From NCBI RefSeq assembly GCF_054482595.1, contig NZ_CM137008.1: a DNA stretch of 64,000 bases; one strand, given 5' to 3'. A program made the translations under genes and the position numbers. This document shows, one piece after another, positions 52,489-61,618 of this stretch (position 1 is its first letter; the number at the start of each line of letters is the position of its first letter). The notes beneath the pieces are model-generated. The model saw nothing but the letters and a program-made list of their open reading frames with translations. It had not been told where the DNA came from and searched no databases.

Positions 52489-52733
52489 ACGCCGCATCCG
52501 GCAGTTGTGCGCTGATGCCTGATGTGACGCTGGCGCGTCTTATTAGACCTACAATTGAATCTTAAAGTATTGAATTTGCAAGTTTTATTGCTGATGCCTG
52601 ATGCGACGCTGTCGCGTCTTATCAGGCCTACAATTGAATCACAATCTATTGAATTTGCACACTTTGTAGGCCGGATAAGGCGTTCACGCCGCATCCGGCA
52701 TTCGGTGCCAGTGCCACATCCGGCACTTAATAT
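52489..52733. repeat. REP/BIME cluster with internal tandem duplication
   Basis: Repeated GCCTGATGCGACGCTG..CGCGTCTTATCAGGCCTAC and GCCGGATGCGGCGTGAACGCCTTATCCGGCCTAC units between convergent yfcO and smrB. Confidence 0.8.
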
Positions 52734-53285
52734 TCACGGCAATTCCGGCGGCAGCCACTCTTCCACTTCAATCAACACCAGCAACGCCGCATCACCACCG
52801 TACTCTTTCGGCGCCTGGTGAAATGCCATCACATGTGGATGTTGCGCCAGCCACAGCGGCGTTTGCTGTTTCAAAATATGCTTACCATGCCCATGCATCA
52901 CACAGGCACAAAACACATGTTCACGGCGGCAGGCGGCAATCAATGCGCCCAGTTCCTGCTTGGCCTGCAGCTGCGTCAGACCGTGTAAATCCAAAAACAA
53001 TTCCGGCGAATAATCACCGCGTCGCAACTTTTTCGCCTCAAAATGACTCACATCCGGGCGAACATATTTAACCGGACCTTCGGTATTTAATAACGGCTGA
53101 AACTCATCGGAGAAATAATGGCTGGCATCAGCCTGCTCCTGGATCAAGCGTTTCACCGGCACTTCGCTGACTTTTTTACGCTGTGGTCGGTGGACAATCG
53201 TGTCCTGCTTAATCTTGCGAGTCCCCGCCATCAACTGGCGAAACAGAGCCTGGTCCTCCTCGCTAAGTGTTGTTTTCTTTTTCAT
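52734..53285 (-). CDS. smrB: Smr-domain protein (ribosome rescue endonuclease)
   Basis: 183 aa ORF with C-terminal Smr domain (LDLHGLT...VMHGHG). Confidence 0.85.
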
Positions 53286-53450
53286 TTATCTGTCTCTATT
53301 TCTAATTTTCCTACAGTTTACCCGACTCGTAGCACAATCGATCGTTTTAAACGTATTTTTCCTCACTCACCGCGCGTGAATGCTGATTTATCGTCATCTT
53401 CATGGCAAACTAGCCGCCGAAATTATTGCGATCATGCCCTGGAGGAATAC

Positions 53451-54383
53451 GTGGATAAAATTTTCGTTGATGAAGCAGTAAATGAGCTGCAAACCATTCA
53501 GGACATGTTGCGCTGGTCGGTAAGCCGCTTCAGCGCGGCAAATATCTGGTACGGTCACGGCACCGATAACCCGTGGGATGAAGCCGTACAGCTGGTGTTA
53601 CCATCGCTCTACCTGCCGCTGGATATCCCGGAAGATATGCGCACCGCGCGTCTGACCTCCAGCGAAAAACACCGTATTGTTGAACGCGTGATCCGCCGCG
53701 TCAACGAGCGCATTCCGGTGGCTTACCTGACCAACAAAGCCTGGTTCTGCGGTCATGAATTTTACGTCGATGAACGCGTGCTGGTACCGCGCTCGCCGAT
53801 TGGTGAACTGATCAACAATAAATTTGCCGGACTCATCAGCAAGCAACCGCAGCATATTTTAGATATGTGTACCGGTAGCGGCTGCATCGCCATTGCCTGT
53901 GCTTATGCCTTCCCGGAAGCGGAAGTCGACGCGGTAGATATCTCTCCCGACGCGCTGGCGGTTGCCGAACAGAACATCGAAGAACACGGTCTGATCCACA
54001 ACGTCATTCCGATTCGTTCCGATCTGTTCCGTGATTTGCCGAAAGTGCAATACGATCTGATTGTCACTAACCCGCCGTATGTCGACGCGGAAGATATGTC
54101 CGACCTGCCAAACGAATACCGTCACGAGCCGGAACTGGGCCTGGCATCTGGCACCGACGGCCTTAAACTGACACGTCGCATTCTTGGAAACGCGGCAGAT
54201 TACCTTGCTGATGATGGCGTGTTGATTTGTGAAGTCGGCAACAGCATGGTACATCTTATGGAACAATATCCGGATGTTCCGTTCACCTGGCTGGAGTTTG
54301 ATAACGGCGGCGATGGTGTGTTTATGCTCACCAAAGAGCAGCTGCTGGCGGCCCGTGAATATTTCGCGATTTATAAAGATTAA
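53451..54383 (+). CDS. prmB: Ribosomal protein uL3 glutamine methyltransferase
   Basis: Methyltransferase motifs ([16 protein letters not shown]); ORF 53118..54383 over-extends into smrB; GTG at 53451 with GGAGG upstream gives 310 aa. Confidence 0.85.
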
Positions 54384-54417
54384 GTAAACACGCAAACACA
54401 ACAATAACGGAGCCGTG

Positions 54418-58120: not shown

Positions 58121-60127
58121 TTACCCAGCCTTAACTGCTTTACCCTTCAACAATTTCCGCACCCATAACCGATTCGGATTTAACGCCGCCAGCGTACTGG
58201 CATCCATCGGAATCGGTTCTTCACTCATCTGTGCCGCCAGAATCTCGGAGCACAGTGGGGCAGAACACAAACCACGCGAACCTAAAGCAGCAAGCATAAA
58301 GAGATCGTCATAAACCGGCGCGCTTACCGCCTTATCTTTCTGCTCCGCCAGCGACGCATATTCCACGAGTGTTGCCTCATAATCGGGAACATTACCTACC
58401 ATTGGCAGATGATCGCGGGTGGCACAACGCACACCGCAGCGCGCCTCTTTCTCACTGATATCAACCTCTTTTGCCCACTGTGCCTGCGGGAAACAATCAA
58501 TCAACCGCTGGCGATTCTGCTGCTGATCGTCCTCACTGTACGCCGTATCTTCGCTGCCGCGATGATAACTGGCACCAATACAATGGTGCTGATTCGCCGG
58601 ATTTTGTGGCGTGAGATAACCGTCATAGCACAGCACCTGCTTCAGTTTTGCCAGTTCCGGTGTCGTCGGAATATGGCTGACCTGACCGGCAACCGAATAT
58701 ACTGGCAGAGATGATGTTTGGCTGAAACGGCTGATTTGATGCCCGTTCGCCAGTACCACTACGCTGTGTGTTGCTTGCTGATCTCCTGCAAAATTCAACA
58801 ACCAACAGTCATCCTTACGGGATAAATCCTGTAACTGATATTGATAATAAATCTGCAAACCCTGCTGTTGCGCCAGTTCCAGCACATTACGGGTCAGTTC
58901 TGCTGGGCACAGCCAACCACCTTGCGGATAAGTAATGCCGCTGCAATTTGTCGCAACGCCCGTAATTTGTTCAACCGCATTTGCCTCAACGGCTACAGCC
59001 AGTTCTTCGGGTAAATCCATTGACAGCATCTGTGCGATTTTATGCTGGCTTTTCTCATCCCAGCCTAACTGCGTGACGCCGCACCAGTCATGATCAAATT
59101 TAACGGGTAATTGGTCGTAAAACCGACGAGTAAAAGTAAACGCATTAGAGAAAAAGCGGTTTAGCGCCTCATCGTGTTTGCTTAATAACGGATACAACGC
59201 CCCCTGGCGATTGCCGGAAGCACCCAGCGCGGGGGCTTCATCCGCGCAATAAAGCGTTACTTGCCAGCCGCGCCGTAATAACGCCAGCGACAACAACGCG
59301 CTGGCAATACCACCGCCGATAATCGCTACTTCCCGTTTGCTGCTGCCCGTACGATTAAACCACGGCGTGGAGCAGGGGAGTGGTAATGTCTGTTCCATCA
59401 CCCCACAAAGCATTTCCCGTTTGCGCCCAAAGCCCTTACGTTTTTGCATCGTGAATCCGGCGTCCTGCAAACCGCGGCGGACAAAACCGGCAGACGTAAA
59501 TGTCGCCAGCGTGCCGCCTGGACGCGCCAACCTTGCCATGGCGTTAAACAGATTTTGCGTCCACATATCCGGGTTTTTCGCTGGCGCAAAGCCGTCCAGA
59601 AACCAGGCATCTACTTTTTGATTTAGCGAATCGTCCAGTTGGCTGGTCAGTTCATTAATATCGCCAAACCATAAATCCAGCGTCACGCGGCCATCATCGA
59701 GTAATAAACGATGGCAACCGGGCAAGGGCATTGGCCACTGCGCCTGAAGTTGTTCTGCCCACGGAGCCAGTTCCGGCCAGTGTTGATGCGCTAAGGCTAA
59801 ATCCGCACGGGTGAGGGGAAATTTCTCAAAACTAATGAAATGTAAGCGTTGTAATTGCGCTTGCGGATGCGCTTCGCGAAACTGATCAAATGCCTGCCAT
59901 AGCGTCAGGAAGTTTAATCCGGTGCCGAAGCCGCTCTCTGCTACCACAAACAGAGGATGTGGATGTTCAGGAAAGCGTGCCTCTAATTGGTTACCTCCCA
60001 GAAAAACATAACGCGTCTCTTCCAGCCCGTTATCGTTGGAAAAATAGACATCGTCAAAATCTCGGGAAACAGGTGTACCCTCAGCATTAAATTCGAGGTT
60101 GGCAGGTTGTATGGAGTAGTGTTTCAC
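58121..60127 (-). CDS. mnmC: Bifunctional tRNA mnm5s2U34 biosynthesis enzyme (methyltransferase / FAD-dependent oxidoreductase)
   Basis: ORF extends to 60187; likely GTG start at [13 protein letters not shown] (60127); FAD-binding GGGIASALL motif. Confidence 0.85.
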
Positions 60128-60285
60128 GTAAGTTACTCGTCTTACAGGCGGTGGCTCGATCTTAGCGATGTGTGTAAGGCTGCGCAAATTTCTCTATTAA
60201 TTGGCTGATCGGACTTGTTCGGCGTACAAGTGTACGCTATTGTGCATTCGAAACTTACTCTATGTGCGACTTACAGAGGTATTGA

Positions 60286-61506
60286 ATGAAACGTGCAGTG
60301 ATTACTGGCCTGGGCATTGTTTCCAGCATCGGTAATAACCAGCAGGAAGTCCTGGCATCTCTGCGTGAAGGACGTTCAGGGATCACTTTCTCTCAGGAGC
60401 TGAAGGATTCCGGCATGCGTAGCCACGTCTGGGGCAACGTAAAACTGGATACCACTGGCCTCATTGACCGCAAAGTTGTGCGCTTTATGAGCGACGCATC
60501 CATTTATGCATTCCTTTCTATGGAGCAGGCAATCGCAGATGCGGGCCTTTCTCCGGAAGCTTACCAGAATAACCCGCGCGTTGGCCTGATTGCAGGTTCC
60601 GGCGGCGGCTCCCCGCGTTTCCAGGTGTTCGGCGCTGACGCAATGCGCGGTCCGCGCGGCCTGAAAGCGGTTGGCCCATATGTGGTCACCAAAGCGATGG
60701 CATCCGGCGTTTCTGCCTGTCTCGCCACGCCGTTTAAAATTCATGGCGTTAACTACTCCATCAGCTCCGCGTGTGCGACTTCCGCACACTGTATCGGTAA
60801 CGCAGTAGAGCAGATCCAACTGGGCAAACAGGACATCGTGTTTGCTGGCGGCGGCGAAGAGCTGTGCTGGGAAATGGCTTGCGAATTCGACGCAATGGGT
60901 GCGCTGTCTACTAAATACAACGACACCCCGGAAAAAGCCTCCCGTACTTACGATGCTCACCGTGACGGTTTCGTTATCGCTGGCGGCGGCGGTATGGTGG
61001 TGGTTGAAGAGCTGGAACACGCGCTGGCGCGTGGTGCTCATATCTATGCTGAAATCGTTGGCTACGGCGCAACGTCTGATGGCGCAGACATGGTTGCTCC
61101 GTCTGGCGAAGGCGCAGTACGCTGCATGAAGATGGCGATGCATGGCGTTGATACCCCAATCGATTACCTGAACTCCCACGGTACTTCGACTCCGGTTGGC
61201 GACGTGAAAGAGCTGGCAGCTATCCGTGAAGTGTTCGGCGATAAGAGCCCGGCGATTTCTGCAACCAAAGCCATGACCGGTCACTCTCTGGGCGCTGCTG
61301 GCGTACAGGAAGCTATCTACTCTCTGCTGATGCTGGAACACGGCTTTATCGCCCCGAGCATCAACATTGAAGAGCTGGACGAGCAGGCTGCGGGTCTGAA
61401 CATCGTGACCGAAACGACCGATCGCGAACTGACCACTGTTATGTCTAACAGTTTCGGCTTCGGCGGCACCAACGCCACGCTGGTAATGCGCAAGCTGAAA
61501 GATTAA
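60286..61506 (+). CDS. fabB: 3-oxoacyl-ACP synthase I
   Basis: 406 aa ORF with active-site Cys ([12 protein letters not shown]) and His-His motifs. Confidence 0.9.
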
Positions 61507-61510
61507 TTCG

Positions 61511-61618
61511 CAGTAGGTCGGAGTAGTCGGAGTAGGTCGGATAAGACGCGCCAGCGTCGCATCCGACATTACGCGCCAGCGTCGCATCCGACGTTACGCG
61601 CCAATGCGGCCTCCGGCA
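61511..61618. repeat. REP/BIME cluster
   Basis: Repeated GTAGGTCGGA, CGCGCCAGCGTCGCATCCGAC units after fabB. Confidence 0.75.

Follow-up and report, generated by a model that had tools for sequence, protein, structure and literature searches.

The 64,000-nt window analysed here (contig NZ_CM137008.1 of the NCBI RefSeq assembly GCF_054482595.1) carries three clusters of palindromic sequences, which very probably are members of the Escherichia coli family of repetitive extragenic palindromes (REP) and bacterial interspersed mosaic elements (BIME), located at the 3' untranslated ends of transcription units. The window is part of an E. coli chromosome, its stretches 52300-52950, 57850-58300 and 61380-61900 being each 100% identical to strain XH990. 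The yfc fimbrial operon (+ strand), whose last gene codes for an adhesin of the StfH/YfcO family (stop codon at 52485-52487), is followed by smrB (52734-53285, - strand), by prmB, aroC, mepA, yfcA, epmC and yfcL on the + strand (yfcL ends at 58000), by mnmC on the - strand, by fabB (+ strand, ending at 61506) and, 3' of fabB, by yfcJ (+) and then flk (-). All three clusters are extragenic, between annotated genes: cluster 1 lies between the convergent yfcO-family adhesin gene (+) and smrB (-), cluster 2 between the convergent yfcL (+) and mnmC (-), and cluster 3 is found 3' of fabB, upstream of the co-directional yfcJ. The location at operon ends proposed by an initial annotation is therefore right, two of the junctions being convergent and the third a co-directional 3' junction, and the coordinates reported there (52489-52733, 58019-58103 and 61511-61618) are accurate to a few bases.

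The assignment to the REP family was evaluated by consensus scanning, folding and genome searches. The full REP consensus, with up to 3 mismatches allowed, matches at 52517-52548, 52596-52627, 52670-52699 and 58073-58102 and nowhere else in the 64 kb, for 0 matches expected from 100 dinucleotide-preserving shuffles. A looser scan for REP half-arms detected 39 matches against a shuffle mean of 5; those which are clustered all fall at the three sites, the remainder of the window containing isolated two-mismatch matches only. Individual REP units fold as expected hairpins of -13 to -21 kcal/mol (z-scores -3.5 to -6.2), the five intact ones reaching -18.8 to -21.4 kcal/mol (z-scores -4.8 to -6.2), and the whole clusters also fold better than shuffled sequences (z-scores -3.7 to -6.4). 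The GTAG foot is present at 52666, 58069 and 61532, and its complement CTAC at 52549, 52628 and 58056. Every predicted hairpin contains an interior loop, such as AA facing GC in the y units, while the z units (types are defined below) show one bulged base and G-U pairs where GC faces TT. In a population sample of 5,426 complete E. coli genomes, a 651-nt query spanning cluster 1 matched a median of at least 39 places per genome. Neither the lack of a GTAG foot or stem mismatch nor a single-copy sequence was seen at these sites. The REP identity proposed initially holds for all three of them, because consensus matches with zero chance expectation, a GTAG/CTAC foot, a mismatched stem and many genomic copies are found together.

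Ton-Hoang 2012 (PMC3333891) describes E. coli REPs as imperfect palindromes, 30-40 nt in length, in which GTAG is conserved on the 5' side of the foot and the stem contains a mismatch, and distinguishes the types y, z1 and z2. According to the same source, BIME-1 elements combine z1 and y with a long L linker, often containing an IHF site, and occur in single copy; BIME-2 elements combine z2 and y with a short linker and occur in tandem copies; and chimeras between these two classes are called atypical BIMEs. A cleavage site, TGCC|TGAT, is located in z-type inverted REPs (PMC3333891), and units containing CCTGAT were therefore classified as z and those containing CCGGAT as y. The elements of the three clusters resemble the three REP query sequences printed, with types unnamed, in PMC11208160; the z units are of the long, 36-nt form, like GCCTGATGCGACGCTGGCGCGTCTTATCAGGCCTAC of that set. 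Shared palindromes, GTAG/CTAC foot, stem mismatch, extragenic 3'-end location and high repetition place the clusters within the REP family (Stern 1984; Gilson 1991), from which nothing essential differs, except that the REP of cluster 3 is a chimera whose y-like outer stem includes a T:A variant, and that the same variant, GTCGGAT, is seen in the y REP of cluster 2.

Cluster 1 is a BIME made up of a long CCTGAT-type inverted REP (iREP), an L-type linker and a CCGGAT-type REP, flanked by REP fragments. Its REPs, REP arms and repeat copies are described on the + strand. It begins 1 nt past the yfcO stop codon with an orphan 3' arm of a y REP (CACGCCGCATCCGGCA, 52488-52503), a 16-mer identical to 52685-52700, which is found in the DSM103246-type allele and missing from the allele of strain 88-3493. 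The internally duplicated unit of about 80 bp described by the initial annotation was measured as 79 nt. Copy 1 (52503-52581) is composed of a decayed long z iREP (52517-52552), with two altered stem positions (TTATTAGAC in place of TTATCAGGC), and of a partial L-type linker. Copy 2 (52582-52660) contains an intact long z iREP (stem 52596-52627, CTAC 52628-52631), with 0 mismatches to the consensus pattern, followed by L-type linker sequence, and is identical to the one copy present in the 88-3493 allele. The predicted hairpin energies are -13.1 kcal/mol for copy 1 and -21.4 kcal/mol for copy 2. Tandem Repeats Finder reports the array at 52511-52659 (period 79 nt, 1.9 copies, 88% matches, score 242), and a separate repeat search finds a 70-nt match of 89% identity, spaced by 79 nt.

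The linker proper is the 34-nt stretch (52632-52665) that separates the z iREP, with its CTAC tail, from the y REP, with its GTAG. An IHF-like core, ATTCAATAGATTG, is found within it at 52642-52654 on the - strand, with a counterpart in copy 1 at 52563-52575; in both copies it occupies the same place and matches 8 of the 9 specified positions of WATCAANNNNTTR, for a window background of 1.08 sites/kb. The linker is a dispersed sequence, covered for at least 80% somewhere in 4,658 of the 5,426 genomes, for the most part away from this locus; the median is 5 places per genome. A sub-threshold Rfam match to the ES036 (CssrF) small RNA was also observed on it (52624-52665, - strand, 29 bits, the gathering score being 37.6); this Rfam family may itself stem from a BIME linker. 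The y REP follows at 52666-52699 (GTAG 52666-52669, imperfect palindrome 52670-52699), with 0 mismatches to the pattern and a hairpin of -20.9 kcal/mol (z-score -4.8). A degenerate y-type 3' arm (AGTGCCACATCCGGCA, 52710-52725), 75% identical to the reference copy, ends 8 nt from the stop codon of smrB, on the opposite strand.

With the BIME-1/RIP/RIB elements (Boccard and Prentki 1993 and Oppenheim 1993, as represented in PMC3333891) cluster 1 shares the tail-to-tail z-L-y arrangement and the 3'-end location, and its dispersed linker with the IHF-like core may correspond to their L linker with an IHF site. Unlike them, it has a z unit which is long rather than short and a z+L part present twice, whereas BIME-1 is a single-copy element; it is for these two reasons an atypical BIME rather than a textbook BIME-1. 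It differs from BIME-2 as well, since its array combines a long linker with diverged copies, whereas tandem copies at one locus are described in the literature as well conserved.

The initial annotation had proposed to compare copy number at these loci across E. coli genomes. At cluster 1 the number of copies differs between genomes, and the uniformity that it had named as refuting a recent expansion was not observed. A query designed to span both copy 1 and the junction revealed the two-copy form in 17 of the 5,426 genomes, all 100% identical, also when 651 bp are considered. A related allele, with a span exactly 79 nt shorter and one copy of the unit, is present in 31 further genomes at least, and in about 15 genomes the identity to the window is 100% from the start of copy 2 on, the left side being different. 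A REP-free spacer of 70 bp, of the type found in K-12, is covered for at least 80% in 1,119 genomes. Ten genomes sampled for sequence contained 10 different yfcO-smrB spacers, ranging from 70 to 319 bp, with a z-L-y BIME in 6, a y REP alone in 1 and no REP in 3; the z+L part is single in most related alleles. One of the REP-free spacers, that of THO-006 (NZ_AP022533.1, 319 bp, 189-507 of the extracted stretch), is an unrelated sequence, which opens with a G+C-rich hairpin (CAACGGGGCC...GGCCCCGTTG), with no T run behind it.

The adhesin gene (51630-52487) is itself highly variable: comparison of the window, 88-3493 and K-12 shows only about 57% nucleotide identity between their yfcO alleles, while the adjacent smrB is 94-100% identical, and the window gene is about 80% identical to the DSM103246 type. 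The yfcO-smrB junction is a recombination boundary, as a nucleotide divergence of about 43% in yfcO stops beside a conserved smrB. The BIME of cluster 1 therefore borders a hypervariable cassette of fimbrial adhesin genes, at a point where a recombination breakpoint falls.

The tandem duplication in cluster 1 had been initially taken as a sign of recent local expansion, i.e. of amplification, in this lineage, of a single-copy BIME. Copy number is indeed polymorphic, the two-copy state is rare and identical in all 17 carriers, related alleles are exactly one unit shorter, and local amplification of BIMEs has been published (PMC3333891). The two copies, however, match in register at only 64 of 79 positions, the hairpin of copy 1 is weakened as reported above, and every single-copy allele examined resembles copy 1 at 85-90% identity, a closer relative of it being found in none of the other genomes among the 5,426. 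In addition, removal from the window of the 79 nt after a shared 14-mer, GCTGATGCCTGATG, yields the 88-3493 allele with 0 differences over 703 nt, all of smrB included. A recent duplication starting from that allele would require about 13 changes to fall within the 158 nt of the array while the remaining 624 nt stayed unchanged (Fisher p = 6e-10); copy 2 together with these 624 nt of flank is 100% identical to the 88-3493 allele. Recent expansion is therefore not supported and looks very improbable. Unequal exchange between misaligned, diverged yfcO-smrB alleles, rather than duplication within one chromosome, is a possible, though somewhat doubtful, origin of the two-copy allele: a left parent would have contributed the yfcO allele, the half REP and copy 1, and a right parent copy 2, the y REP and smrB. 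Consistent with such an exchange, the left flank (yfcO 3' end and half REP) resembles the DSM103246 type, the sequence from copy 2 rightwards is that of the 88-3493 type, the divergence between copies is of the same order as that between alleles, and the yfcO divergence marks the junction as a recombination boundary. The sampled alleles, on the other hand, contain no unit closer than about 90% to copy 1, and the sequence GTTGTGCGCTGATGCCTGATG on the left side of copy 1 recurs unchanged at the left edge of 88-3493; a deletion origin of that allele accounts for this at least as well. From the alignment, the 88-3493 type is more simply read as the outcome of a deletion of 79 nt, between 14-nt direct repeats (GCTGATGCCTGATG), in an old two-copy haplotype. 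The duplication is therefore best described, as partly shown by these data, either as an old copy in the course of decay or as a result of unequal exchange between alleles that had already diverged; it persists in a single rare haplotype. Two further sources were considered and rejected: crossing-over between the identical 16-nt y arms (52488-52503 and 52685-52700) predicts a period of about 118 nt, not 79, and import of copy 1 from another BIME locus finds no genome with a copy closer than about 86-90%.

Alternatives to the REP/BIME reading itself were also weighed. That the palindromes are gene-specific Rho-independent terminators, similar to REPs by chance, would agree with their 3'-end position and G+C-rich hairpins, but is almost certainly wrong. 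No T run follows any REP hairpin, and the sequences match a dispersed family found at tens of places per genome. Moreover, a separate canonical terminator follows cluster 3, and a terminator-like hairpin of mnmC is present at 58135-58110. The former, the intrinsic terminator of fabB (61627-61655, + strand, hairpin 61627-61650), consists of a stem of 10 bp with a UGAU loop, followed by a U-rich tail (-15.9 kcal/mol); it lies downstream of the REP array, is kept in 10 of 10 compared alleles and is clear on folding, although a consensus terminator scan did not list it. A different possibility is that the clusters code for functional small RNAs of the nucleoid-associated naRNA4/REP325 kind, instead of being passive repeats of 3' untranslated regions (UTRs). 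The Rfam model of naRNA4 (RF02564) matches all three clusters, the best score being 54 bits at 61535-61611 on the - strand, ES036/CssrF matches the L linker, and almost 80% of E. coli REPs are transcribed, according to PMC4550694. All the Rfam matches were obtained with permissive thresholds and fall below the gathering scores (59.5 for naRNA4, 37.6 for ES036), any REP would score in this way against a model built from a REP cluster, and a search for promoter-like sites beside the clusters found none. A small RNA function is consequently regarded as very improbable, and membership of the REP/BIME family is retained as the reading of all three sites.

Cluster 3 consists of one chimeric REP, of which the GTAG-foot and the loop with the 3' arm are each reiterated in tandem; the two resulting arrays, with periods of 10 and 25 nt, were absent from the initial annotation. 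The first one (61508-61541, + strand) is formed by 9/10-nt units, GTAG(G)TCGGA, each consisting of GTAG and the foot of the REP stem; 3 units are present in the window, and Tandem Repeats Finder reports a period of 10 nt with 3.5 copies. The complete hairpin follows on the same strand at 61532-61567 (GTAG 61532-61535, stem 61536-61567), with a y-like outer stem (TCGGAT) and an inner stem and loop like those of the long z form (AAGACGCGCCAGCGTCGC); it folds at -21.3 kcal/mol (z-score -5.7). The second array (61546-61615, + strand) reiterates the loop and 3' arm, ACGCGCCAGCGTCGCATCCGACNTT, as two copies with 1 difference and then a degenerate copy, described by Tandem Repeats Finder as 2.3 copies at 96% (61546-61603) or 2.8 copies at 86%.

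The size of this region varies widely. In 59 evenly spaced genomes the spans fall into 11 classes, from 444 to 523 bp, about half of them at 477 bp, for 521 bp in the window, and the GTAG(G)TCGGA units number from 1 to 6 across ten aligned alleles. The whole REP is missing from the EM10-18-28 allele, and the fabB-yfcJ spacer of K-12 lacks the 5' arm of the REP, GTCGGATAAG (junction GTAGGTCGGAGTAG|ACGCGCC), while the full hairpin is present in most sampled alleles. The extra 25-nt copy, one base different, is found in 19 of the 5,426 genomes, the others having a span of 65 nt rather than 90. These 19 genomes include all 17 carriers of the two-copy form of cluster 1, located 9 kb away; the two rare states thus lie on one haplotype of at least 9 kb. 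The genomes of this haplotype come from diverse hosts and sources, namely human, chicken, duck, pig, pangolin, fish and an indoor environmental sample.

Among the three sites, cluster 3 is the truly unstable one; it behaves like a minisatellite, changing by whole units, and it is here, rather than in cluster 1, that the recent-looking expansions are found. Replication slippage is the likely cause of the unit changes. Each of the units carries CC|TAC on the bottom strand, and RayT cleavage and strand transfer at these repeated sites are a possible alternative. The stronger proposal, that unit variation and the duplications and deletions of arms are natural in vivo footprints of RayT cleavage and strand transfer and not of slippage, is considered unlikely; if it were true, cluster 3 would report RayT activity in wild E. 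coli and might tune the stability of fabB mRNA.

Cluster 2 contains just one REP pair, arranged tail to tail around a linker of 9 nt. A long z iREP (58023-58059, + strand; stem 58023-58055, CTAC 58056-58059), with 0 mismatches in both arms and a hairpin of -21.3 kcal/mol, is joined by the short linker ACGTCACAC (58060-58068) to a y-type REP of the GTCGGAT/ATCCGAC outer stem variant (58069-58102, + strand; GTAG 58069-58072), which has 2 mismatches to the y pattern and folds at -18.8 kcal/mol. The combination of long z iREP, short linker and y REP is that of BIME-2, but in contrast to the tandem arrays of that class, whose copy number differs from strain to strain and which DNA gyrase binds and cleaves, there is only one unit, whose span is nearly invariant in the sampled genomes. 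At least 80% of a 451-bp query is covered in 5,207 of the 5,426 genomes, nearly all sampled rows having the same 451-bp span, and intact cluster 2 is missing from at most about 218 genomes. K-12 differs from the window by point changes only, and a minority allele, 65 bp shorter, is without the z unit. A terminator-like hairpin with 11 pairs and a T-rich tail overlaps the stop codon of mnmC (58110-58135, - strand); since it sits between mnmC and the BIME, the latter lies beyond the likely terminator of mnmC on the - strand.

Some genomes match the right part of cluster 2 alone, and in CP66-6_Sichuan the cause is an insertion of IS621, a bridge-RNA recombinase element of the IS110 family. Its published natural target is the 11-mer ATCAGGCCTAC, with a CT core, inside a REP (PMC11208160), and exact matches to it occur in the window only at 52621-52631 and 58049-58059, at neither of which IS621 is present in the window itself. 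In CP66-6_Sichuan (NZ_CP053723.1, 1544500-1546687) IS621 is inserted in cluster 2 exactly at ATCAGGCCT|AC, with the left junction ...TTATCAGGCCT|TGTATTATCC and the right junction ...ACAGTATCT|ACACGTCAC. The exact yfcL/IS621 junction was found in at least 25 genomes; the cluster 2 site is therefore occupied in some E. coli, with the published CT core junctions.

The gene of the REP-associated transposase, rayT, was searched for as well. A REPtron gene elsewhere in the genome, as envisaged by the initial annotation, does exist: rayT is intact in XH990 (NZ_CP019359.1, 3,849,559-3,850,056), at its usual yafL locus, and the REPs of the clusters carry the GTAG and the stem mismatch that RayT needs. 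It is not adjacent to the clusters, however, but 2.3 Mb away, and since in a REPtron rayT is flanked by REP/BIME sequences, none of the three clusters is part of one. In the window, tblastn with K-12 RayT gave no significant homologue (best E = 0.018). The gene is also present in TUM18530, another carrier, and 3,574 of the 5,426 genomes have a rayT match, while 1,852 are without; these counts are in line with the published history of early gain and later loss. In XH990, rayT adjoins an intact Flag-2 (lateral flagella) cluster (flhA, flhB, fliR and others), of which only the pseudogenes lfhA and lafU remain in the neighbourhood of K-12 rayT.

As for function, the literature summarised in PMC3333891 attributes to these elements the protection of mRNA from 3' exonucleases, the attenuation of read-through and the recruitment of IHF by the L linker. 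Transcribed into the 3' UTRs of yfcO, smrB, yfcL, mnmC and fabB, the REPs would form RNA hairpins acting as barriers to 3' exonucleases, which would stabilise the mRNA, and as partial attenuators; at the DNA level, the L linker may recruit IHF at its putative site. The REPs would also be substrates of the RayT tyrosine transposase, which could cleave and rejoin single-stranded REPs and in this way add or remove units, and targets of REP-specific insertion sequences such as IS621.

What was directly observed in these data is family membership, hairpin potential, location in 3' UTRs, polymorphism in the population and use as IS621 target. Several points weigh against the overall interpretation. 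The functional roles attributed to the REPs of these particular alleles (mRNA stability, IHF binding) are carried over from the family and should be taken as presumptive. The IHF-like core fits only 8 of 9 positions, and such matches are met about once per kb by chance. Slippage and RayT-mediated change are indistinguishable from sequence, and whether the 79-nt change was a gain or a loss was judged by parsimony rather than from a rooted phylogeny. A long z REP together with a long linker does not fit the strict definition of BIME-1 (z1, y and L, in single copy). Finally, the long z form is taken to be z2 in the naming of Gilson and Bachellier, a tentative assignment that draws on the untyped query sequences mentioned above.

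REP and BIME elements, their placement at operon ends, copy-number variation between strains, the link to RayT and targeting by IS621 are all already published; variation between strains at a given locus, for example, is mentioned in PMC3333891, in a passage citing Bachellier 1997. The elements described here are ordinary, and their importance beyond housekeeping is small. The useful outcome is a correction: the 79-nt duplication is probably old and decaying and belongs to one rare haplotype, while it is the REP in the 3' UTR of fabB that changes quickly. This REP and the yfcO-smrB spacer could serve as typing markers, and the 5,426 genomes, 1,852 of which have no rayT match, could be used as a natural test of RayT as the driver of REP variation.

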